Under the pieces are notes generated by a model that worked only from the letters and a program-made list of their open reading frames with translations, made no database searches and had not been told where the DNA came from. DNA of 64,000 bases from assembly GCA_036825545.1 (NCBI GenBank), contig DAISYB010000020.1, positions 11 through 64,010 of the forward strand. Reading direction: 5' to 3'. Each line of letters starts with the position of its first letter. Position 1 is the first letter of the stretch. Of this stretch, positions 165-57,224 are shown in pieces. This stretch comes from Crocinitomicaceae bacterium (GTDB lineage Bacteria; Bacteroidota; Bacteroidia; Flavobacteriales_D; Crocinitomicaceae). A program made the translations under genes and the position numbers.

Positions 165-923
165 TTGTTAAAGAATTTAAACGATTACTTACCTAAAAAG
201 GGATTCAATAATTACATAGAGCCATTTTTAGGAGGGGGATCAATATTTTTTTATTTATCTCCGAAAGATGCAATTCTATCAGATCTAAATAGTGAATTGA
301 TTGAAACATATTGTATTTTAAGAGACTCTGTGGAGCCAATTATTGATGTATTACAAACCTATTCGAATACAGAATCATTCTACTATCAAATTCGATCAAA
401 AATTCCAAAATCGGAAATTGAAAGAGCTGCAAGATTTATTTTCTTAAATCAAACATCATTTAATGGTATTTATCGAGTAAATCTCAAAGGAGAATACAAT
501 GTCCCATATGGATTTCGAACGAAAAATTTTCTTCAGGAAGAAAACCTTCGTTCTGCTAGCGAATGTTTAAAAAGTGTAATTATCAAATCAAGAGATTTTT
601 ATCGCTCTTTGGAGGATGTCAAAAAAGGTGACCTTGTAATTCTCGATCCACCATACACGGTTACTCACAATAATAATGGATTCATTAAATACAATGCAAA
701 ATTATTCGATTTAAATGCCCAAATTGCCCTAAGTAAATACATTGATTGTGTCAATGAAATAGGAGCAAATTATATCTTGACTAATGCCGCCCATGAAGAT
801 ATAAGAAAGATTTTCACTCGAAAACATAACGTTATTGAAACAACGAGTAGAGCAAGCTTAGTTGGTGGGAGTAAGGCCAAAAGAGGTAAATATGACGAAT
901 TTATTATTACAAACATTCATTGA
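165..923 (+). CDS. Dam-family (D12 class) N6-adenine DNA methyltransferase
   Basis: Motif I is EPFLGGGSIFF and motif IV is DPPY (645-656). NQTSFNGIYRVN is typical of Dam/DpnM enzymes. The conserved KPFLRWAGGK box is encoded in frame upstream (129-158) of the first canonical start, so the true start is probably near 108 (CTG). The coordinates given are those of the ORF track. Confidence 0.85.
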   Translation: MLKNLNDYLPKKGFNNYIEPFLGGGSIFFYLSPKDAILSDLNSELIETYCILRDSVEPIIDVLQTYSNTESFYYQIRSKIPKSEIERAARFIFLNQTSFNGIYRVNLKGEYNVPYGFRTKNFLQEENLRSASECLKSVIIKSRDFYRSLEDVKKGDLVILDPPYTVTHNNNGFIKYNAKLFDLNAQIALSKYIDCVNEIGANYILTNAAHEDIRKIFTRKHNVIETTSRASLVGGSKAKRGKYDEFIITNIH

Positions 924-925
924 AA

Positions 926-3202
926 ATGGACGATAACACTAGAATATCTTTATCAGGTAAATTACTCAGCGGGAATGAGTTAAAAAAAGAACTGAATTCC
1001 AGAAAAAGGGAATTTATTTATGAAAGTGTACCAAAGTCTTTAAAAGATGAATTTGAATCAGATGGATGGAAATTAGATAAGGAATTTAAAACAAAGTATA
1101 AATTCAAAAAACTAAAAGAAACTGATATTCAATTTGAAGATCAAGTATGGACATTACTCGCAAATTTGGGTTTTACATTTTTAAACAAAGACAGAAATTT
1201 CAATATCCCATATGATAAAGAAGGTAACACTCAACAAATTGACGTAATAGCGAAGGATGATGAATCAGTTTTAATTATTGAATGTAAAGCTTCGAAGGAG
1301 AAAAATAAAAGGGCTGATTTCAAAAAGGATCTGGAAGCATATTCAAGTAAAATAGGTGGTATTTTGCAATCTGTCAAAGAATTATTTCCAAATTCAAAAT
1401 TAAAATTCAAGTTCATCCTAGCAACCTCAAATTATGCGGTTAGCGAACTAGATTTAGAACGACTAGCAAACATTGGTGGCATTCATTTGGACGAAGAAGC
1501 AATTAATTATTACGGTGAAATGCATAGTCAAATTGGTTTAGCTGCGAGGTATCAATTATTAGGCAGTCTTTTTGAAGGTCAAGAAATTCCCGAAATTCAA
1601 AATGAGATCCCTGCAATACAAGGTAAAATGGGAGGACATACGTATTATTCATTCTCAATTGAACCTGAAAAGCTTCTTAAAATAGGATATGTATTACACA
1701 GAAATAAAGCCAATAGAAAAATGATGCCAACATATCAAAGAATTATTAAGAAGGCTCGAATTAAATCTGTTCAAGAATTTATAGATAATGGCGGTTATTT
1801 TGCAAATTCTATAATAATTAGTATTACAACGAATAATAAGAAATTAAAATTTGACAGAGCAAATACTCAAGTTAAAGATTCCATAGCAGATATTGGTATT
1901 CTTCATCTACCAAAAAAATATAGATCAGCTTTCATTATAGATGGCCAACATCGGTTATATGGATATTCAAACTCTACCTATAAAGCAAAAAATTCAATTC
2001 CTGTTGTTGCGTTTATTGATTTGGATAGAGAAGAACAAGTGAAATTATTTATGCAAATAAATGAAAATCAGAAAGCTGTCCCAAAAAATTTAAGAAATAC
2101 TCTTAATTCTGATCTTCTATGGACTTCTGATAGCTTGCTAGATCAATTTAGAGCAATAAAATCCAGAATTTCATTGGAATTAGGTGAGAACAGAAATTCA
2201 GCATTGTATGACAGAGTTATTATTGGTGAAAATAAAAAAAACAATCTAAGATGTATAACTACCGATACAATTATTAGAGCAATTGGAAGAACAAACTTTT
2301 TAGGAAAAGTTACTAAAACTAAAATTGAAAATCCAGGCTCATTTTACAGAGGGGATTTGGATGATTGTTTCGATAAATTATCTGATTTCCTTATTAGGTC
2401 TTATTCTTATTTAACCGATAACGTCCAAGAAGAATGGAAACGTGGAGAAGATAGTATAATTGGTATAAACAAGGGGGTGTATGCCTATATTATGATCTTA
2501 GGTGATATTGTTGACTTTCTTCTAGAAAACAATATTTGTACCCCTAAGAGTTCATCAAAAGTGTTGTTTGAGGAAAGCAAGACATACATAGACCCGATAA
2601 TTAATTTTTATCTTGAAATTAAACCTGATACTGCTGAAGAATTAAAATCAAAACACGGATCAGGTGGAGATACAAAATACTGGCGTACCTTGCAGTTGGC
2701 TGTTAGAAAAGTACATCAAAATTTCAATCCATTAGGATTAGATGATTATCTAAAAAAGGAAGCTCGAGAGTACAATACTGAAGCATTCAAATATATTAGA
2801 GATATTGAAACTTATTTTAAAGATGATTTTAAAAATAGACTCGAGGATTTTTTCGGTTCTTCTTGGTTTAAAAAAGGTGTGCCGCCTCAAACTGCAAAAA
2901 AAGCTAATGAACTTGCTTTCGACAAAAATTTGACAATTGAAAATGTGGAAGATGAAGTTGACGCATGGGATTGTTTAACAATAATTGCATATAGATCCAT
3001 TGCTGTAAAGAATTGGAGAGAAATCTTTGAAGAACATTATACGAGACCGGGTGAAGAAAAAATGCAAGGAGGTAAAGAAGCAAAGACTGAATGGATGGTA
3101 AAATTGGAAAAACTAAGAAATGAAAACTTCCATCAATATTCAGTGACCGAAGAAGAATTTGATTTTTTACAATCTATTCATGAATGGCTGATTGAAAAAT
3201 AA
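926..3202 (+). CDS. Large fusion protein: N-terminal PD-(D/E)xK nuclease-like core, central DGQHR (DndB/DpdB/ParB-like) domain, C-terminal HEPN-like Rx4H motif
   Basis: IDVIAK..VLIIECK gives D at 1241-1243 and ExK at 1280-1288. FIIDGQHRLYGY places DGQHR at 1940-1954, followed by FMQINENQKAV. LRNENFH lies at 3116-3133. The ATG at 926 is 2 nt after the methylase stop codon; the TTG at 920 in the ORF track is less likely. Confidence 0.7.
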   Translation: MDDNTRISLSGKLLSGNELKKELNSRKREFIYESVPKSLKDEFESDGWKLDKEFKTKYKFKKLKETDIQFEDQVWTLLANLGFTFLNKDRNFNIPYDKEGNTQQIDVIAKDDESVLIIECKASKEKNKRADFKKDLEAYSSKIGGILQSVKELFPNSKLKFKFILATSNYAVSELDLERLANIGGIHLDEEAINYYGEMHSQIGLAARYQLLGSLFEGQEIPEIQNEIPAIQGKMGGHTYYSFSIEPEKLLKIGYVLHRNKANRKMMPTYQRIIKKARIKSVQEFIDNGGYFANSIIISITTNNKKLKFDRANTQVKDSIADIGILHLPKKYRSAFIIDGQHRLYGYSNSTYKAKNSIPVVAFIDLDREEQVKLFMQINENQKAVPKNLRNTLNSDLLWTSDSLLDQFRAIKSRISLELGENRNSALYDRVIIGENKKNNLRCITTDTIIRAIGRTNFLGKVTKTKIENPGSFYRGDLDDCFDKLSDFLIRSYSYLTDNVQEEWKRGEDSIIGINKGVYAYIMILGDIVDFLLENNICTPKSSSKVLFEESKTYIDPIINFYLEIKPDTAEELKSKHGSGGDTKYWRTLQLAVRKVHQNFNPLGLDDYLKKEAREYNTEAFKYIRDIETYFKDDFKNRLEDFFGSSWFKKGVPPQTAKKANELAFDKNLTIENVEDEVDAWDCLTIIAYRSIAVKNWREIFEEHYTRPGEEKMQGGKEAKTEWMVKLEKLRNENFHQYSVTEEEFDFLQSIHEWLIEK

Positions 3203-14441: not shown

Positions 14442-15560
14442 TTAGAATCCAAAGATCTTCTTCAACTCTGCCTCCAAGTCCGGACCTCTCAAATTGGTCT
14501 TGATGATCTTTCCTTCCTGATCGATCAATAGCGTAAATGGAATACCTTTCACACCGTACATTTGAGGAACTTTACTTGACCAATGTCCCAAATCACTCAC
14601 ATGATTCGGCCAAGACAGATTGTCTTTTTCTATTGCTGCCAACCAAGCGGCTTTATCACGGTCCAATGAAACACTCATTACCGTGAATCCGGAATCCTTG
14701 TATTTTTCGTACGTTTTCACCACATTCGGATTTTCCTTACGGCAAGGTCCGCACCAAGATGCCCAAAAATCTATCAATACGACTTGGCCACGCAGATCAG
14801 ACAATTTCATAGTTGTTTTACCGTCAGTCTTCAATTCCTCAAAATCCGGAGCCAATTTACCGGGAGCCAATAGATTCGCCTCTTCCTTTTTCGCTTTTAT
14901 CAGCTTGTAATTTTTTACGATTTCCTTTACAGCAGGTGACTCACCAAATCCGGTATTCAATTGGTTCACAATGGACTCATAGGTAGCAAAATCATTCTCT
15001 ACATCGATCAATTGAACCACAGGAATCAAAGCTGCTGAATTTTGATTTTTCGCAATAAAATTCTGCATGTTCGCTTGAAAATTGTAGTACTCTTGCGTTA
15101 AACTCGCATTAATCTCATCGCGTTTTGACGGATTTGCCTGCATTTCAGCAATGCCATTGTCACGTTTGTGATTCCATAGTGTCATTACCTTAACAAACTC
15201 GTTCATCACCGCACTTTCATCAGAACCAACGATATTTGAATAATTGAACAGGTCTGCACCATCACCATAAATCTTGATGTCCGATTTATTGCGCAAAATC
15301 AAATTGATATGTGATTCACCCAATTTCAATACATAATAATCTGCACTGGGCAAACTCGCATTCATACTGAAATCACCATTCTTTTTGATCGCTGCTTTTT
15401 TGTAGACACGGTAATTGCCCGGACCGAAGTACTGCGCCAGCGTAACAGAATCTTCCTTTGTATTGAAAATATTTCCGGAGATCGTTACATCAATGGACTG
15501 CTGAGCAATCAGCATTGTGCTGAAGATCAAAAAGCTGTAAAGTGATAAAAGTCGTTTCAT
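14442..15560 (-). CDS. TlpA-family thiol:disulfide oxidoreductase with an N-terminal DUF4369-like domain
   Basis: LIDFWASWCGPCRKENP is a thioredoxin-fold CxxC motif. The signal peptide is MKRLLSLYSFLIFSTMLIA. The internal ATG at 15560 is preferred as the start. Confidence 0.8.
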   Translation of the reverse strand: MKRLLSLYSFLIFSTMLIAQQSIDVTISGNIFNTKEDSVTLAQYFGPGNYRVYKKAAIKKNGDFSMNASLPSADYYVLKLGESHINLILRNKSDIKIYGDGADLFNYSNIVGSDESAVMNEFVKVMTLWNHKRDNGIAEMQANPSKRDEINASLTQEYYNFQANMQNFIAKNQNSAALIPVVQLIDVENDFATYESIVNQLNTGFGESPAVKEIVKNYKLIKAKKEEANLLAPGKLAPDFEELKTDGKTTMKLSDLRGQVVLIDFWASWCGPCRKENPNVVKTYEKYKDSGFTVMSVSLDRDKAAWLAAIEKDNLSWPNHVSDLGHWSSKVPQMYGVKGIPFTLLIDQEGKIIKTNLRGPDLEAELKKIFGF

Positions 15561-15596
15561 AGTATTTTCTTTGTATCTGTTTAAGTGCGACAAATT

Positions 15597-16760
15597 TTAT
15601 TTGCCGAGCAGCTCAACCAATTTCTGTTCCAAACTCGCTCCACGTAAACCAGTTTCGATAACATTACCTTCTTTATCCAAAAGAACTGTGTGTGGAATTC
15701 CTGAGAAACCATAAAGTGAAGTCATCGGCGTTTTCCACCCCAATAAATCACTCACATGGTTGGGCCATTCCAAGCCATCCGAAGCAATTGCTCTCTTCCA
15801 CGCTTCAGCATCCTGATCAAGTGAAACCGAATAAATGGTAAATCCACGATCCTTGTATTTCTGGTACAATTTCACCACATTTGGATTCTCCCGACGACAG
15901 GGTCCGCACCACGACGCCCAAAAATCAATCAAAACATATTTTCCTCTTAACGAAGACAACTTAATGACTTTTCCCTGAGGATTCTTCAATGCAATTTCAG
16001 GAGCCAATTTAGATCCAGACTCTTTGGCTAAGTACTGTTCGTAAGCCATTTCAATCTGAAAAACCTGATTCTCCATTGTTGCAGCGATTGGTGAACCCTC
16101 GTACGTTTTCAAATACGCTTCAGCTACTACTTTCAAAACGTCAAGGTACTCCGGATTCCAATATTTGAATCCTGTATTGGGAGAAAGTGTGGTTGACAAA
16201 ACGATGTTGAAAGGGTTCTCCGGGCTCTTTTTCATGCTTGCCACTGCGAAATCATCCACCGGTTTTTTTAGCTCGTGGTAACGCTTCACCACCTCTTCTT
16301 CTGAGGCTGTTTTCTGTAATTCGCTTAACTCACCTTGAGAAGAGGCAAAAACACTGTACAAGCGCATGTACTCATTCATGACTCCTGCCCATTTTGTTCC
16401 ACCAACATTGGGACGCATGGAAAAATCAGCAAAGCTACTCTTCACTGTGATTTTGTCATCCGGAACGATGGTCAATGGAATGGCTTTATCCGCAGATGCA
16501 CCTATTCTCAATTGATACAAGCCCATTCCAGGAACATTTCCCGATAAACTGAAAGATCCGCTATTATCTGTTTTACCCTTGACAACTTCAATCGTTCCCT
16601 GTGCACTCAGTGCCTCAACAAAAACATCCATATTGTCAGCTCCTTCGACTTGCCCACTTATCGTAAAGTTATCATCCGGATCCATTTTCACTTCGTTATC
16701 ATCTGCACCACAAGATACCAGTAAAACGACCAATAAAAGTTGTAAAGCGTATTTCATCAT
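15597..16760 (-). CDS. TlpA-family thiol:disulfide oxidoreductase lipoprotein (paralogue of the preceding gene)
   Basis: LIDFWASWCGPCRRENPNVVKLYQKYKDRGFT is nearly identical to the equivalent block in the neighbouring gene. The lipobox is LLVSC. Confidence 0.8.
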   Translation of the reverse strand: MMKYALQLLLVVLLVSCGADDNEVKMDPDDNFTISGQVEGADNMDVFVEALSAQGTIEVVKGKTDNSGSFSLSGNVPGMGLYQLRIGASADKAIPLTIVPDDKITVKSSFADFSMRPNVGGTKWAGVMNEYMRLYSVFASSQGELSELQKTASEEEVVKRYHELKKPVDDFAVASMKKSPENPFNIVLSTTLSPNTGFKYWNPEYLDVLKVVAEAYLKTYEGSPIAATMENQVFQIEMAYEQYLAKESGSKLAPEIALKNPQGKVIKLSSLRGKYVLIDFWASWCGPCRRENPNVVKLYQKYKDRGFTIYSVSLDQDAEAWKRAIASDGLEWPNHVSDLLGWKTPMTSLYGFSGIPHTVLLDKEGNVIETGLRGASLEQKLVELLGK

Positions 16761-21591: not shown

Positions 21592-22752
21592 ATGAGAAAA
21601 AAGATCCTTCTTTTGGGTTCAGGTGAACTTGGAAAAGAGTTCGTAATTGCTTGTCAGCGCTACGGACAATACATAATTGCAGTTGATAGTTACGAAGGAG
21701 CGCCCGCGATGCAGGTTGCACATGAATTTGAAGTAATCAACATGTTGGATGGAGATGAGTTGGATCGAATTGTTGCAAAACATCAGCCCGACCTAATTGT
21801 ACCTGAGATCGAAGCTATTCGAACGGAGCGTTTTTTCGATTACGAACAAGAAGGAATTCAAGTCGTTCCAAGTGCGAAAGCAGCGAATTTCACCATGAAC
21901 CGCAAGGCCATTCGTGATTTAGCGGCTATTGAAGTTGGCGTGCGCACAGCTCCTTACAAATATGCTACATCATTTGAAGAGTTGAAGGAAGGTGTTGCTT
22001 ATACCGGTATGCCATGTGTGGTTAAACCACTGATGTCCAGCTCAGGTAAAGGACAATCCGTTATCAAAACGGAAGCTGACATCGAAAAAGCATGGAATTA
22101 CGCAATGGAAGGTTCTCGAGGTGACCTAAAAGAGGTAATCGTTGAAGGATTTATTGATTTTGACTATGAGATCACCTTATTGACTGTAACTCAAAAAAAT
22201 GGTGCTACCCTATTCTGTCCGCCAATTGGACACCGCCAAGAACGAGGAGATTATCAGGAAAGCTGGCAACCACAAGTAATGGATCCTGCGCATTTAGCTG
22301 AAGCTCAAGAAATGGCAGGAAAGGTGACCCAAGCATTAGGTGGAGCCGGAATTTGGGGGGTAGAATTTTTCATCACCAAAGAAGGCGCCTATTTTTCTGA
22401 ATTGTCTCCACGTCCGCATGATACGGGAATGGTCACATTAGCCGGAACTCAAAACTTTTCAGAATTCGAATTGCACGCAAGAGCGATTTTAGGTTTGCCC
22501 ATTCCTGAAATTGAATTGTTGAACAACGGTGCCAGTGCCGTTGTTTTAGCGACTAGTTCAAACGATGCTACACCCGTTTTTACCGGTCTAGAAAAAGCGG
22601 CCAATCACCTGAGATCTGATCTGCGTATTTTTGGAAAACCTTTCACACGGCCTTACAGACGCATGGGTGTAGTCTTGACCTATGGAAAAGAAAATACTAC
22701 AGAATTGGTGGAGCGCGCAAAAAAAATTGCAACAGAAATTGAAGTAAAATAA
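21592..22752 (+). CDS. purT: Formate-dependent phosphoribosylglycinamide formyltransferase (GAR transformylase 2)
   Basis: [12 protein letters not shown], an ATP-grasp core, and PRPHDTG. Confidence 0.9.
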
Positions 22753-22819: not shown

Positions 22820-25800
22820 ATGAACTTGGAAAGAAACAATATCAGTACAGAACTATCAGACTTTCTTGATACGTGTAAGCAATCCAGCGAAAAAGCAATT
22901 GGTGTACTGCAATCCCTCATCGATCAATTAGAGCATCCTGAGGAACAATCCAAAGGCATTCAACTGTTGAATGAACTTAAGCATTTTGCGAAAAGCATAA
23001 CGGCTGATGACATGCGTAATGAATTTCATTTTCACTTTTTGGAAATGGAAATTCCGGGAAACATGAATGACACAATTCGTCTTCAGTTGCTGCAATTACC
23101 AAGTACTTTCGCGCCGGAAGACTGGTCGTTCACCTTTTTCGAAGGATTATCGCGCTATACTTTTTCGGAGTTTCACGATAAACAAATGGTTGAGCTCGGG
23201 TGTGGAAATGGTTGGATCACAATCTCCATGGCCCTGAAATACAATTGCCGAAAGATTTTTGGTCTGGACATCAATCCAAGAGCGATTTTATCCTCCAAGA
23301 TCAATCTTTTCCTGAATGCATTTGACGATCAAGGTACACTTATCCGATTCTCAGATGGACGAAGTTTGTTGGAAGCAGTGGAATTTAAAGTATCTGATCT
23401 ACTCTCCTGTTTTTATACTTCACGAGAATCCGATTTCGATGTTATCATCGGTTGCATACCTCAAGTTCTTGCTCCTGACGAGGGTATCGATCAATCCATG
23501 ATCTCCGAAACCGCGAATGATGATTTTCTACATTCATTGAGCAATTACACGGCTGAACAAGGTTATGTTGAGGATAAATTCGGACTTGGATTGATCGCTC
23601 GTTCCGTTGAAGAAAGCATCGAAATGCTGAAACCGCAAGGGAAATTGATCTTAAATCTGGGTGAACGTCCACGCAGGGAGGTGCTTGAACGACTGGTGAA
23701 ACGAAGAGGACTGTTGATCAGCCGCATTTGGACGAGAAAAGTGGAACAAGCCAATGACACAGACATCGATTCACTTGTGCGATTGGAAAAAGAGATGAAT
23801 CATCATTTCGAGTTCTATACCGACCTTCATTCCGAAACACCAATCAATGCGCGAACAGCTAAATTATTTGCGACAAAAGGTGGACGGATCTATCATAATT
23901 TGTCCGTTTACGAGTGTAAGTTTGATTTTTACACGGAAACTCAGGTGCTTTTCGATGAGTTGAAAAATGAACTTTTTTCCGAAGCGAAAACTGGCCTAGA
24001 CCTTGATTATGCAGATAGCAACAAAAAGGAAGAAAAAATCCGATTTTTATCGGAACTCACTAAGGATTTACGCACTACACCATTTTTCCCTTATGAAGAT
24101 AACTTGGGAAGTCAATCCTTCAGAAACTACCTTTCAGATTTTCTTTCAGCCTATCAGCATGTCAATTTTTCAGAGGATCAAATTCTGGTAACTCCAAATT
24201 TGGCAACATTGATCGAAAATGTGCGTGACATATTCTGTCCAAAAGCGCTTTTCCTTTCAGAACCTTTATTCAACTTGTTTCCCGATTTGGCGGCCCATGA
24301 AGAAGTGATCTCGGTTCCTTCATGTTCAAAGGAGTTGAATTCGTTAATTGAAAAAATTCGACCGCAGATCGTTTTTGCCAGCATTCGTGACAACCATACT
24401 TTTTCAGGAGAGGCATTCTTGCGTATCGTTGAATCGTGTAAACGGGCAAATTCAAGACTTTTTCTCGATCTTTCTGAATGTTTCGAGTTGTCGAGTTCTC
24501 CTCAGTCGATAGGTGTTTTCCAATATTTAGCAGAGAATGACTTGCCTCTGCACGTTACTTTAGTTGGTGAATTATCGAAGAATCAGATCTATTCAGACCT
24601 GAGTACCTGTTTCGCAATCAGTACAAACAAAACGCTAGTGTACAATCTGAGAAATGCAGCAGAATTCTCGTACAGTCGTTCTCCGTATTTGGCTCAGTTG
24701 TTTTACTCTATACTTTTGAAAGACCTGACCGGGTTCCATATGAAAAATGTGAAGAATACAGAGTCCATCCAACTGCTTCAGGAAGAGAACGAGCAAATGC
24801 GTTCGATCTTTATCACTCCCACAACGACTGTCAATGCTTCTTTCCAACACTCTTCTATAAAGGGTAATGAATTAGCGGTAAATGCATCAACAGTGCGATT
24901 CGATTACGGAGAGAATGAATTAAATTGTCCTGACGATCTCAAAATTTCCATTCTGGAAAGCTTTACCCGTCAGTCACTAGAGCAAGACGATTACGATCCC
25001 AAATTGCTAATCAAACGTTTTGTAACAGAGCGCTTTGGTTTAAAATACGGTGATTATTTGTATTATGGCAATGGCGTTGCACCTTTATTTGCCGCAATCG
25101 CCAAAAAGATCAAGGAAGAAAACGGAACATTGCTTATTCCGCGAGGTGCATACGGCTATTTCTATGGAACTGCACAGTTTCATGGCGTAAAAATTCGTGT
25201 AATACCGACTGATGTAGCACAATCGTTTATTCCAAGTCCAAGCGCAGTAAAAGAAGCTCTAAATGACATAGAAAATCCTTGGATTTTCCTCAATTTTCCA
25301 TTGGTAAATCCAACCGGTGCCTGTTGGAGCAATGAGCAACTGGAATCTATTTTAACCTTGGATGAAATCAGAAATAGCCGATTGATCATTGATACGGTTT
25401 TTTCCGGACTTGAATTCAAGGGACCAGGTTCTTTTCCTATTTTGACAGAAAAAGAAGTTGAATTGAATTACATTTTGTTGGGTGGGATCTCCAAAGAATA
25501 TTCTGCAGGTGGAATCCGTTTTGGATATGCACTATCAAATTTTTGTTCCGATTTGGGTAATCGAATCAATTATAAGCCACACCGAACAGTCTTATACGCC
25601 GTTAAGAAAATATACAGTAAGTACCTGGATCGCGACCTTCGTGTACTGCATTCTTTAAATGAACAAACAAGTCTATTGAGTGAACGGGCGAAATTGCTCG
25701 GTGATGTCCTTCAACAAAACGGCTGGACTGTTCTGCCACCAGAAGGAGGATTATTTCTCGTGGCTAAACCAGACTCATTGCTTGGTAAAACTTGTAAATT

Positions 25801-25990
25801 AAGTAATGGTGAAGAATTAACAGTTGATGCAACGTCAATAGGCAGGATCATGCACGACAAGGTCAATTTCCTGATCAACAATGATCGATGGACTGGAATC
25901 CCCGGTTATTGTCGTTTTGTCCTTAGTGTACAAGAAAAAACATTTAACGAAGGTTTACAACGAATTAAACAATTTCACACTGAAATCTAA
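22820..25990 (+). CDS. Plant-type methionine S-methyltransferase-like protein (N-terminal SAM methyltransferase plus C-terminal class I/II aminotransferase-like domain)
   Basis: 1056 aa. Matching blocks are EDWSFTFFEGL, VELGCGNGW (23192-23215), GLDINPRA, IIGCIPQVL (GCIPQ at 23450-23464), FLHSLSNY, FGLGLIARSVEE, DTDIDSLV, and the C-terminal WTGIPGYCRF. These agree with my recollection of plant MMT (EC 2.1.1.12) along the whole length. Confidence 0.7.
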   Translation: MNLERNNISTELSDFLDTCKQSSEKAIGVLQSLIDQLEHPEEQSKGIQLLNELKHFAKSITADDMRNEFHFHFLEMEIPGNMNDTIRLQLLQLPSTFAPEDWSFTFFEGLSRYTFSEFHDKQMVELGCGNGWITISMALKYNCRKIFGLDINPRAILSSKINLFLNAFDDQGTLIRFSDGRSLLEAVEFKVSDLLSCFYTSRESDFDVIIGCIPQVLAPDEGIDQSMISETANDDFLHSLSNYTAEQGYVEDKFGLGLIARSVEESIEMLKPQGKLILNLGERPRREVLERLVKRRGLLISRIWTRKVEQANDTDIDSLVRLEKEMNHHFEFYTDLHSETPINARTAKLFATKGGRIYHNLSVYECKFDFYTETQVLFDELKNELFSEAKTGLDLDYADSNKKEEKIRFLSELTKDLRTTPFFPYEDNLGSQSFRNYLSDFLSAYQHVNFSEDQILVTPNLATLIENVRDIFCPKALFLSEPLFNLFPDLAAHEEVISVPSCSKELNSLIEKIRPQIVFASIRDNHTFSGEAFLRIVESCKRANSRLFLDLSECFELSSSPQSIGVFQYLAENDLPLHVTLVGELSKNQIYSDLSTCFAISTNKTLVYNLRNAAEFSYSRSPYLAQLFYSILLKDLTGFHMKNVKNTESIQLLQEENEQMRSIFITPTTTVNASFQHSSIKGNELAVNASTVRFDYGENELNCPDDLKISILESFTRQSLEQDDYDPKLLIKRFVTERFGLKYGDYLYYGNGVAPLFAAIAKKIKEENGTLLIPRGAYGYFYGTAQFHGVKIRVIPTDVAQSFIPSPSAVKEALNDIENPWIFLNFPLVNPTGACWSNEQLESILTLDEIRNSRLIIDTVFSGLEFKGPGSFPILTEKEVELNYILLGGISKEYSAGGIRFGYALSNFCSDLGNRINYKPHRTVLYAVKKIYSKYLDRDLRVLHSLNEQTSLLSERAKLLGDVLQQNGWTVLPPEGGLFLVAKPDSLLGKTCKLSNGEELTVDATSIGRIMHDKVNFLINNDRWTGIPGYCRFVLSVQEKTFNEGLQRIKQFHTEI

Positions 25991-25995
25991 GCAAC

Positions 25996-26553
25996 ATGAA
26001 AGTAGTAGTTTTTTCAATTTTATCCTTATTTGGTGTAGTTCTATTATCCTGTAAAACAAGCAGAGACAATGCATCACTCACTGATCAAGAGATCATTCAA
26101 TTGGGAGATTCATTGAGTAGAATAGCACAACAAACCTTACTACAAAATGTAGGCGAAGCAATAAAAAATGGCGGAACTGCTCATGCGGTTGATTTCTGTA
26201 ATATTCATGTCAGCTCTATGATGGATTCATTATCCAAAGAATACAACGTGCGAATTGAACGTATAGCCAGAAAAAACAGGAATCCCAATAATGCTCTGAC
26301 GATGGAGGAATCGCGTTTATTACGACCTCTCGAAAAAGGATTCAAAAACGACACCTTGATCAATATGGGAGACAAACGCATTTACTACAAAGCCATACGA
26401 ATTGAAATGCCTGCTTGCTTGCAATGTCATGGCACTAAAGAAGATATTTCGCCGGAAACATTAAGCATTATCCGAAAGAAATATCCTACAGATCGAGCAA
26501 CAGGATTTAAAATGGGGGATTACCGTGCAACCTGGAAGTTGGTGTTTGAATAA
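25996..26553 (+). CDS. Secreted/lipoprotein DUF3365 (Tll0287-like) domain protein with a c-type heme motif
   Basis: The signal peptide with lipobox is VLLSC, and there is a single CLQCH heme-binding motif. The gene starts 6 nt after the MMT-like gene. Confidence 0.55.
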   Translation: MKVVVFSILSLFGVVLLSCKTSRDNASLTDQEIIQLGDSLSRIAQQTLLQNVGEAIKNGGTAHAVDFCNIHVSSMMDSLSKEYNVRIERIARKNRNPNNALTMEESRLLRPLEKGFKNDTLINMGDKRIYYKAIRIEMPACLQCHGTKEDISPETLSIIRKKYPTDRATGFKMGDYRATWKLVFE

Positions 26554-31401: not shown

Positions 31402-32334
31402 TTATTGCGCTATTTCTTCACCGTGAGGCGTGTACATCGTCACACCCCGTTCGTTGTATTCGTTCTTCATTACGACTAACATCTGAGCAGCATCAAAACA
31501 CATGGTTTTCGCTTTTCCAATTTGTCCGAACTGTACAACTCCCTGCTCTACAAACATAGGTATAAGTTGATCACACTTGCGTTTAGCAGAAAAAACAGGA
31601 TTATGTACTTTAATTCTTACTTTATGTATTTCACCGCTTTCATCACGAATCTGCATGATAAAATGCTCATGATGATAGACCGGAAACTTAAAATCAGTTA
31701 CTGCATCTTCAAGTAAATGTAAACTTGTTCCTGCATTATCAAGTGTCACCCCAATGTAAAGGATCTTCCCATTCACTTCTGTCAGTCGCGCAAATGGCGA
31801 ATTCAACGTATATGGCGTCTCTTCACCAAAATGACCTTCAACAAACCAATCAGCCCGAGGTCCCAAAGCACAAACAGGCTCTGTTGGACTCAAGCTTCTT
31901 TTTACCCCTTCCATTTTTCGAAAGGCTTCAGATACGGCCCCAAGAGCTGAAGGCGATTGATTAACATCGAAAAAATTCTGATTGCGCACATATTCTAATT
32001 GAAGTGACGGATTCGGAGAACTAGGCATCAAAATGTTTCCATTTATGCCAACAACTTCTTTCAATGCATCAATTAGAGTGCGAGGACCATTTTCCATGTA
32101 ACCGATCCTGCTCATACTGCAGTGCACAAGTACTGAATCTCCTTGTTGAATACCTAAGTTTTTGAGATCGTCGATCAAACGATCTTTTCTCACCACATCC
32201 CCTGATTTTGCGGAATTTTGCAATTCAATTCGCACTTTTTTCTTTTTGTACTGGCGGTATTTTTCCAGTAAGAAAAGTGGGATGATATTACGAAGTGTTC
32301 CTTTAAAATCCATTACAAGGCTTAAAATTAACAC
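31402..32334 (-). CDS. AAC(3)-family aminoglycoside N3-acetyltransferase-like protein
   Basis: GDSVLVHCSMSRIGY, and TSLHLLE, resemble Antibiotic_NAT (AAC(3)) family blocks. There is an N-terminal extension of about 50 aa. Confidence 0.6.
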   Translation of the reverse strand: MLILSLVMDFKGTLRNIIPLFLLEKYRQYKKKKVRIELQNSAKSGDVVRKDRLIDDLKNLGIQQGDSVLVHCSMSRIGYMENGPRTLIDALKEVVGINGNILMPSSPNPSLQLEYVRNQNFFDVNQSPSALGAVSEAFRKMEGVKRSLSPTEPVCALGPRADWFVEGHFGEETPYTLNSPFARLTEVNGKILYIGVTLDNAGTSLHLLEDAVTDFKFPVYHHEHFIMQIRDESGEIHKVRIKVHNPVFSAKRKCDQLIPMFVEQGVVQFGQIGKAKTMCFDAAQMLVVMKNEYNERGVTMYTPHGEEIAQ

Positions 32335-56210: not shown

Positions 56211-57224
56211 ATGCCAAAAATCCTTTATTGCATTTTTATTGCATCGTCCTTAACTTCCATGTTATTCTCTCAGAGAATAATCACCTCTGACGGTAAAGAT
56301 ATGGGACAAGTTTCATATTTTCTAGAGCCATGTATCAATAACATTAGTTCAAATCTTCTTGAACAAGGAATAAATATAAATCCGGAAAAATTTTGCCATT
56401 GTATTGCTGAAGAATTAATTCCGGTTTTAACTAAAAAAGAAAATGAATATTTTTTCTTTCAAGACCACATGGTTGAACTATTTTCAAATCCTAAGTCAAG
56501 CCCAATTTTAATAAATTGTATCAAATCAAATTTAAAGTTGGACGCAAACACAGTCGTTGATTTTAAATCCATTGAGGATAGTATTGAAGGACCAAAAATT
56601 TTAGACATTTGTGTAAGTACCTTTTTCAGTTTTGATTTAGAGCAATTTGTCAGTAGAGAACAATCTCTAGAGTATTGCAAATGTGTACATCAAACTTTTC
56701 CTTCTAAAAAATACACCTATAGTGAACTAGTTGAAAACAAGGGGTTCAGGGGTAGAAATGCAGCTATGGATAAAGCAAAATGCATGTCATTTGCCTTATA
56801 TGGCGATTCGTCAATTTGGAACTCTTCAAACAGTCTAACCCAAGGTCCAAGTGGAAAAATAAATATTAAAATTGATCCAAATAATTTTATTGGCATTCAA
56901 ATTGGCTCAAAAGAGCACTTAATTAAGATAAATTTGAGTGCTCAAGAATCTCAATTAAGTAAAGAAATTGAAAACGAACTTACCATTTTGGGACTATTCA
57001 ACTCATCAAATTCTTACGGTGAAGTTAACATTAAGAAGAATAATGGTGAAGAAACCTTAGGTAATATTTACTCTTTGCCTTCAGCAAAAATAGGTCCTTT
57101 TATCATACATGATATTCCTGTCATCATTGTTAGTGATGACTTTTATTTAGGGGCATCTTTTTTTCAAAACTTTAACCTTGTTGAACTAAACCAAGAGAAT
57201 GGATTTCTTATTCTTGAAAAATAG
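56211..57224 (+). CDS. Hypothetical secreted protein; the C-terminal region may be retropepsin-like
   Basis: It has a signal peptide and is noticeably AT-rich. The C-terminal segment ..IGPFIIHDIPVIIVSDDFYLGASFFQNFNLVELNQENGFLIL resembles the ends of bacterial retropepsin-like domains. The evidence is weak. Confidence 0.4.
   Translation: MPKILYCIFIASSLTSMLFSQRIITSDGKDMGQVSYFLEPCINNISSNLLEQGININPEKFCHCIAEELIPVLTKKENEYFFFQDHMVELFSNPKSSPILINCIKSNLKLDANTVVDFKSIEDSIEGPKILDICVSTFFSFDLEQFVSREQSLEYCKCVHQTFPSKKYTYSELVENKGFRGRNAAMDKAKCMSFALYGDSSIWNSSNSLTQGPSGKINIKIDPNNFIGIQIGSKEHLIKINLSAQESQLSKEIENELTILGLFNSSNSYGEVNIKKNNGEETLGNIYSLPSAKIGPFIIHDIPVIIVSDDFYLGASFFQNFNLVELNQENGFLILEK

Follow-up and report, generated by a model that had tools for sequence, protein, structure and literature searches.

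A two-domain methionine S-methyltransferase from Bacteroidota with a predicted pyridoxal phosphate site that is replaced in the plant enzymes

The window analyzed here is a 64,000-nucleotide stretch of contig DAISYB010000020.1 (positions 11 to 64,010, forward strand) of the Crocinitomicaceae bacterium assembly GCA_036825545.1. It encodes a complete homologue of methionine S-methyltransferase (MMT), the product of an open reading frame (ORF) that starts with ATG, contains no internal stop codons and is translated into 1056 amino acids (aa) (Table 1). A Pfam search of this product detected a class I S-adenosylmethionine (SAM)-methyltransferase motif (MTS/Methyltransf_31) at aa 117-182 and Aminotran_1_2 (PF00155) at aa 741-1003 (E 4.7e-22). 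No NCBIfam model specific for the protein was found; the top NCBIfam matches are pyridoxal phosphate (PLP) enzymes, the best of them being GntC, which is a PLP cyclodehydratase and no transaminase. The BLASTP alignment with the MMT of Selaginella moellendorffii (XP_024516277) covers aa 15-1052, with 398 of 1079 positions identical (37%; E = 0), and the MMT of Pseudobacteriovorax antillogorgiicola (P0064) is 40% identical over the full length. As judged by these alignments, the resemblance to MMT is specific and far above chance. An earlier reading made from the sequence alone (hereafter, the sequence-only reading) had recognized a full-length, two-domain, plant-type MMT in this ORF. This assignment stands: the protein is collinear with the Selaginella enzyme, both domains are found by Pfam, and all the sequence blocks quoted in that reading occur in the translation, each aligned to its Selaginella counterpart. 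The full-length AF2 model has a mean pLDDT of 86.9, and its pTM of 0.82 suggests that the modeled domains form a rigid multi-domain assembly.

Table 1. Coordinates of the MMT gene, its domains and sites, and the adjacent genes in the window.
Feature	Position	Strand	Evidence
MMT gene, complete, 1056 aa	22820..25990	+	ORF; end-to-end match to Selaginella MMT
N-terminal helical head, aa 1-84	22820..23071	+	Four helices in both AF2 models
MmtN-type SAM-dependent methyltransferase domain, aa 85-370	23072..23929	+	phmmer, Foldseek
GxGxG SAM-binding motif, G127-C-G129-N-G131	23198..23212	+	Invariant across homologues
Degenerate aminotransferase-like large domain, aa 431-637	24110..24730	+	hhalign profile-profile
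Class I aminotransferase-fold domain with intact PLP site, aa 680-1056	24857..25987	+	Pfam, profiles, Foldseek
K892 codon (AAA), predicted PLP Schiff-base lysine	25493..25495	+	Alignment to 1o4s, 6f77, 1m4n
purT, housekeeping, 67-nt gap before the MMT gene	21592..22752	+	NCBIfam PRK09288/TIGR01142; conserved at L081, the locus of the 81%-identical MMT
Tll0287-like ORF, 185 aa, 5 nt past the MMT stop	25996..26553	+	Pfam PF11845

In profile searches against the PDB, the C-terminal domain (C-domain) matched aspartate aminotransferase (AspAT; 6f77) with E 8e-36 (127 bits) and 1-aminocyclopropane-1-carboxylate (ACC) synthase (1m4n) with E 4e-33 (118 bits). Foldseek returned prephenate and aspartate aminotransferases first and ACC synthase close after, with TM scores of 0.77-0.84 normalized to the target. 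Because the profile scores of AspAT and ACC synthase are equivalent, transaminase and gamma-eliminating chemistry are not separable by sequence. The motif GISKEYSAGGIRFGY, which begins at aa 889, contains K892, and this residue occupies the alignment column of the lysine that forms the Schiff base in solved aspartate aminotransferases (FSKSHSMTGWRVGY in 1o4s) and in ACC synthase; the PLP-lysine-type signature that the sequence-only reading had placed at this codon is therefore borne out. Together with K892, the residues D858, N830, R900 and R1032 are aligned with catalytic residues of 1o4s, 6f77 and 1m4n. The predicted roles are those of the Schiff-base lysine for K892, the contact with the pyridine nitrogen for D858 and with O3' for N830, the phosphate contact for R900, and the alpha-carboxylate contact for R1032. 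At its N-terminus, the C-domain carries an invariant motif, R-x-D-Y-G-E-N. The G-E-N part of this motif (aa 697-699) was considered as a sulfonium anchor of the ACC synthase 'A-E-N' kind, and this idea was dropped because the HMM alignment to ACC synthase begins downstream and because histidinol-phosphate aminotransferases have N-E-N-P at the position of 'A-E-N'.

The predicted PLP site is strictly conserved among the full-length non-plant homologues: K892 occurs in 113 of 115, and all 115 have R900, N830, D858, Y778, G752, R1032, R693, D695, E698 and N699. Across 71 non-plant full-length representatives, one clade of which shares only 25-28% identity with the window MMT, little or no variation is seen at R693, D695, E698, N699, G752, Y778, N830, D858, S891, K892, R900 and R1032. 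In the six plant MMTs, all of them real database proteins, position 892 is occupied by L, F or T, position 900 by E, K, T or D, position 778 by N and position 693 by H, so that the question raised by the sequence-only reading, whether plant MMTs retain the lysine, is answered in the negative. Within aa 240-1056, 43 positions are conserved at 95% or more in the non-plant proteins; 27 of these are retained in all six plants, and seven (R693, G697, Y778, K892, R900, L978 and F979), all located in the C-domain, are replaced in all six. Given these seven replacements common to the plants, we infer that the C-domain of plant MMT has specifically lost the cofactor site, and that the bacterial C-domain is constrained to keep it.

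The region between the two recognizable domains is related to the C-domain itself. In an hhalign comparison, aa 431-637 matched aa 724-936 with 98% probability (E 2.3e-13), and this homology marks the middle region as a degenerate second copy of the aminotransferase large domain. No lysine is conserved at the PLP position: the window MMT has K586 there, in a column that is variable across the family. The middle region possesses invariant residues of its own, namely Y425, D550, S559, N588, Y591, Y618, R620, Q626 and Y629; in the pairwise alignment, Selaginella differs at Y618 and P622. One idea is that the middle pseudo-domain could mimic the second subunit of an aminotransferase dimer.

The N-terminal part of the protein is related to MmtN. 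The helical head is the least conserved region, with 22-23% identity to the plant and Pseudobacteriovorax MMTs, whereas the methyltransferase domain has 53% identity with the N-terminal domain (N-domain) of Selaginella MMT. The best phmmer match of the N-domain to a solved structure is MmtN (7vvv; E 2.9e-7, aa 97-363). When the AF2 model of aa 1-378 (pLDDT 88.4) was used as the Foldseek query, the top nine matches were all MmtN chains (E 3e-16 to 4.5e-15), followed by PrmC (4e-10); the TM scores for MmtN, normalized to MmtN, are 0.69-0.78, at 22% identity. Generic methyltransferases of known structure align only to aa 123-190, that is, to the SAM motif, so that the relationship extends beyond that of a generic methyltransferase. 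D150, S192 and C212 stand opposite D69, S101 and C121, which bind SAM in MmtN, and are kept in essentially all homologues. The statement of the sequence-only reading that MmtN corresponds to the N-terminal part alone agrees with Peng et al. 2022 (PMC9135737).

Neighbor-joining trees were built for each domain with 50 bootstraps; these trees are crude, and their deep nodes are weak. In both, the window MMT falls inside the main family clade, where it clusters beside two sequences from Flavobacteriales (50/50 and 41/50 in the two domain trees), and a divergent bacterial clade stands apart (50/50 and 37/50). The streptophytes are monophyletic in the C-domain tree (50/50); in the N-domain tree, the land plants are recovered in 49/50 replicates, and together with the charophyte Closterium in 45/50. 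The streptophyte clade is nested in both trees within the main bacterial clade, which also holds Pseudobacteriovorax. With aminotransferase and ACC synthase outgroups, 40 of 50 replicates place the root in or beside the divergent bacterial clade, and 3 of 50 place it on the plant/Mastigella branch. The N-domain and C-domain trees are concordant, and the fusion thus appears to be old. The plant-bacterium transfer history suggested by the sequence-only reading is supported by these trees, which would most simply be explained by transfer from bacteria to an early streptophyte and not by the reverse. The archamoebid Mastigella eilhardi has a transcript (P0231) for an MMT homologue whose PLP site is degenerate; this sequence is loosely associated with the plants in the C-domain tree (23/50) and not in the N-domain tree.

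A search of ~5.8 billion proteins (E <= 1e-5) yielded at least 685 homologues of the window MMT; the best 120 are nearly all two-domain proteins of ~1050 aa with 38-81% identity, and just 148 of 1.84 billion 50%-identity representatives reach E <= 1e-30. A pattern scan of one genome per species, which gives a lower bound, detected MMT in no fewer than 87 of the 185,579 species covered. The carriers include members of Bdellovibrionota (Silvanigrellaceae, Oligoflexia, Bacteriovoracaceae and Pseudobacteriovorax); Kangiellaceae, Alcanivoracaceae and Alteromonadaceae; Pleurocapsales-type cyanobacteria and Sericytochromatia; Acidobacteriota; Myxococcota; and four genomes of Bacteroidota. Complete genomes with the gene exist for Aliikangiella, Pleionea, Hugenholtzia, Fluviispira and Xenococcus. 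The MMT family is rare and patchy, yet it is neither new nor restricted to plants. Many homologues are already named 'methionine S-methyltransferase' at JGI, and one, from a Salibacteraceae metagenome-assembled genome (MAG), at NCBI. In the passages of Peng et al. 2022 (PMC9135737) that cite Williams et al. 2019, dual-domain plant-like MMTs are reported from some Deltaproteobacteria and Oligoflexia, and the same study unites the plant and bacterial two-domain MMTs in one functional group, Group III. By sequence and architecture, the window gene is a bacterial Group III ('plant-like') two-domain MMT, a further member of this group, from Bacteroidota. The sequence-only reading had considered a two-domain version in such a genome unexpected; because bacterial two-domain MMTs are already published and annotated, this surprise fails. 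That reading would also have given up its surprise over homologues common and characterized in Bacteroidota; they are common in bacteria generally, but no characterized member from Bacteroidota was found, and nothing specific on bifunctional or PLP-active MMTs in bacteria, or on MMTs of Bacteroidota, emerged from the literature searches.

Two further observations concern the composition of the family. Bdelloid rotifers of the genus Rotaria (P0045, P0051 and P0108) encode two-domain MMTs that are 42-44% identical to the window protein and branch near the Bacteroidota sequences; in one of them (P0051), Glu replaces the PLP lysine. For a rotifer, Peng et al. 2022 (PMC9135737) give only the short MmtN type. 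Five homologues (P0284, P0289, P0293, P0299 and P0310) are 1400-1800 aa long, with an N-terminal extension of 500-900 aa before the MMT module, and a Pfam scan of these extensions returned no match.

In the window, the neighbors of the MMT gene are purT, the Tll0287-like gene, GH3, YdjM, VTC and lpxK. The Tll0287-like ORF is possibly co-transcribed with the MMT gene. At L081, it is likewise located downstream, with a 4-nt overlap, and gene order is shared with the window over 19 kb. The Tll0287-like gene is absent beside MMT at L001, L083 and the other loci compared, and so is not a family-wide partner; the gene order of the window is not shared by the 64% relative or by the nearest species representative (the close relatives P0002 and P0010 were used in the context comparison). 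Clustering of the neighbors at 80 loci identified no partner conserved across the family, only within-clade synteny and a generic two-component cluster; the lack of such a partner accords with Peng et al. 2022 (PMC9135737). No methionine, S-methylmethionine (SMM) or dimethylsulfoniopropionate (DMSP) genes were found among the 53 ORFs of at least 150 aa scanned, up to position 57224. Neither an Rfam nor a tRNA scan returned any match in the window, so that no riboswitch was detected upstream of the MMT gene. The GC content of the MMT gene (0.39-0.41) equals that of its flanks, and neither context nor composition hints at an island or at recently transferred DNA. Among the scanned genes, which are ordinary Bacteroidota housekeeping genes, one codes for a T9SS-sorted protein; GatB shares 79% identity with its counterpart in a Crocinitomicaceae MAG and 76% with the one in Taishania pollutisoli. 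The sample codes of the close relatives of the window genome and of many other MMT carriers are taken by us to denote lake and river projects.

Other features of these loci were recorded in passing. A two-component gene is located within ~2 kb of MMT at 13 of the 80 loci, in several phyla (L003, L013, L017, L029, L033, L040, L045, L046, L052, L060, L061, L077 and L078; within 1 kb at 12 of them); these response-regulator or histidine-kinase genes contain common domains, and their proximity is maybe due to chance. At the loci of the Silvanigrellales type (L005, L008, L012, L019, L021, L028, L031, L034, L049, L064, L069 and others), the position of MMT is fixed: upstream lies a conserved secreted protein beside rplK-rplA-rplJ...rpoB, and downstream a cytidylate-kinase-like gene. 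In the window itself, a D12/Dam-type type II DNA methyltransferase (165-923) overlaps a gene for a 760-aa DndB/DpdB-like protein (920-3202), and the first 3 kb have a GC content of 0.31 versus ~0.40 elsewhere; the segment 165-3202 may be a small restriction-modification or defense islet. Two tandem paralogous lipoprotein-like genes at 14442-16760 on the minus strand, each with a C-terminal thioredoxin/AhpC-TSA domain and the first with DUF4369, are conserved in the 81% relative. An ORF with an aminoglycoside 3-N-acetyltransferase domain (31402-32334, minus strand; PF02522, E 4.7e-50) is embedded among fatty-acid and housekeeping genes.

The best overall explanation of these observations is that the window gene encodes a Group III SMM synthase with a functional PLP domain, to which we assign a probability of roughly 0.7. 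The N-domain would use SAM to methylate L-methionine at its sulfur, yielding SMM, as its homology with plant MMT and MmtN suggests, and the C-domain would bind PLP, as suggested by the conservation of the PLP-site and carboxylate-site residues. More speculatively, and as the reading that we favor for its reaction, the C-terminal PLP domain may act on SMM, the sulfonium amino acid made by the fused methyltransferase. The candidate reactions are a gamma-elimination or ACC-synthase-like reaction, which would release dimethylsulfide (DMS) together with ACC, vinylglycine or 2-oxobutyrate, and transamination of SMM, which would give 4-dimethylsulfonio-2-oxobutyrate. SMM carries an excellent gamma leaving group, and ACC synthase, a close structural relative of the C-domain, performs such chemistry on SAM. 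Plant MMT would then be a derived form left with the methyltransferase activity only. This extended proposal, under which bacterial Group III MMTs are bifunctional, with the PLP domain converting SMM, and plant MMT is a half-inactivated descendant of a bacterial gene that an early streptophyte acquired, is tentative, and we consider it possible rather than probable. The window gene is a stand-alone chromosomal gene, and for it a role in methionine, SAM or SMM housekeeping is more likely than one in the synthesis of DMSP as an osmolyte.

Several points weigh against the favored explanation, an SMM synthase with a functional PLP domain. The tyrosine that contacts O3' of PLP in class I aminotransferases and ACC synthase (Tyr225 in AspAT, Tyr233 in ACC synthase) is a phenylalanine, F861, in the MMT family; F861 is located opposite the Y of DDMYEHL in 6f77 and of SDEIYSG in 1m4n, and is present in 115 of 115 non-plant homologues, 70 of the 71 non-plant representatives and five of the six plants. 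Sensor domains of the MocR/GabR type are non-catalytic and yet have an intact PLP site. Compared with the 81% relative, the C-domain has changed some fivefold faster than the methyltransferase domain (dN 0.20 vs 0.04); in favor of the explanation, non-synonymous divergence in this comparison is low in every MMT domain, and because synonymous sites are saturated, dN/dS is not usable and dN alone is given. The methionine-binding residues E127, R132 and E250 of MmtN have no clear equivalents in the window MMT: in the pairwise HMMER alignment, E127 is opposite A218, R132 lies within a gapped loop and E250 is beside an insertion, and the loop is modeled poorly. These three residues are dispensable for catalysis according to Peng et al. 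2022 (PMC9135737). Finally, the neighborhood, in the window and at the 80 loci, provides no pointer to the product of the PLP domain.

In a rival explanation, the protein would be an SMM synthase only, with the PLP domain binding PLP as an oligomerization scaffold or as a PLP-dependent allosteric amino-acid sensor that tunes the methyltransferase, comparable to the aminotransferase-like domains of MocR/GabR regulators. Plant MMT works without the PLP residues, which implies that the C-terminal half has a role independent of catalysis, and the retention in plants of 27 of the 43 highly conserved positions, the replacement of the usual PLP-contacting tyrosine by F861 and the lack of linked downstream genes are consistent with such a role. 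A sensor would, moreover, preserve the same PLP-site residues. However, the invariance of the full catalytic set (the lysine, the aspartate, the asparagine, both arginines and the N-terminal substrate loop) at ~25% identity appears excessive for a scaffold. We regard the scaffold or sensor role as a serious rival to a catalytic PLP domain, albeit one that is possible rather than probable. It is improbable that MMT instead performs the first one or two steps of DMSP synthesis, with the PLP domain transaminating or decarboxylating SMM toward DMSP-aldehyde or DMSP-amine. The class I aminotransferase fold would suit this role, but no downstream DMSP genes were detected in the window scan or at the 80 related loci, and at the lake and river sites suggested by the sample codes, DMSP would not be expected as an osmolyte. 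SMM is the first intermediate of the methylation-type DMSP pathway, and P. antillogorgiicola, the carrier of the 40%-identical MMT, makes DMSP, but it is the only one of four tested MMT-carrying strains to do so, and Group III MMT genes are unlinked to DMSP, nonribosomal peptide synthetase (NRPS) or methionine-cycling genes (Peng et al. 2022, PMC9135737). The DMSP-type sulfonium metabolism proposed by the sequence-only reading accordingly finds no support here.

Slightly less probable still is a methyltransferase substrate other than free methionine, which would make the family name misleading for bacteria. The methionine-contacting residues of MmtN are not visibly conserved, as noted above, and the loops at ~aa 216-252 are poorly predicted by AF2; against this stand the 53% identity of the N-domain to plant MMT, a characterized methionine S-methyltransferase, and the placement of the bacterial and plant enzymes in one functional group (Peng et al. 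2022, PMC9135737). A recent plant-to-bacterium transfer, which would make the window gene truly 'plant-type', could account for the end-to-end similarity to plant MMT, but can be almost entirely discounted: the window MMT groups with Flavobacteriales, the plants and the charophyte form a clade of their own nested among bacteria, the outgroups favor a root in or near the divergent bacterial clade over one on the plant/Mastigella branch, the presumably ancestral PLP residues are kept in bacteria and missing in plants, and the gene matches its flanks in GC content and shares synteny with the 81% relative.

The gene call itself is routine. What the analysis adds is the PLP site, intact in bacteria and apparently lost in plants, the duplicate in the middle region and the nesting of the plants within bacterial diversity; the useful lead is the strictly conserved, complete PLP site of bacterial MMT that plants seem to have specifically lost. 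The aminotransferase-like half of MMT has hitherto been regarded mostly as an unexplained appendage of a plant enzyme. If the PLP domain is catalytic, this would explain why the fusion exists and where the enzyme of the plant SMM cycle originated. It would also explain the purpose of SMM in bacteria that do not make DMSP, a question left by Peng et al. 2022 (PMC9135737), who found the role of SMM in Group III bacteria hard to predict. If the bifunctional reading is true, lake, river and marine bacteria would convert methionine to DMS, or to a new product, by a route not yet described.

Among known systems, plant MMT (EC 2.1.1.12; for example, the Selaginella and Arabidopsis enzymes) resembles the window protein in length and in the order of the parts (helical head, MmtN-type methyltransferase, middle module and C-terminal aminotransferase-like domain), but the six plant proteins compared lack the PLP lysine, the phosphate arginine, Y778 and R693, which are kept in the window MMT and in nearly all non-plant homologues. 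The Group III MMT of Pseudobacteriovorax shares the architecture, the intact PLP site and the stand-alone gene without linked pathway genes; the difference lies in the host, which for the window MMT is a Crocinitomicaceae-like member of Flavobacteriales, in a phylum that is unnamed in Peng et al. 2022 (PMC9135737), and in the separate Bacteroidota branch. MmtN of Groups I and II (bacteria, archaea and a rotifer; 7vvv, 7vvw and 7vvx) has the fold of the N-domain, the GxGxG motif and the SAM-binding residues D69, S101 and C121, for which the window MMT has equivalents, but is a single-domain protein of ~300 aa; the genes of MmtN Group I cluster with DMSP or NRPS genes, whereas the window MMT gene shows no linkage to DMSP, NRPS or homocysteine methyltransferase genes among the ORFs scanned. 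The subgroup I PLP enzymes (6f77 and 5wmh; ACC synthase, 1m4n and 1b8g; GntC, 8fft) share with the C-domain the fold, the lysine, the aspartate, the asparagine and both arginines. In contrast to these enzymes, the C-domain of the window MMT follows a methyltransferase and a degenerate copy of itself in one fused chain, has phenylalanine at the position equivalent to Tyr225, and carries the R-x-D-Y-G-E-N motif of its own.

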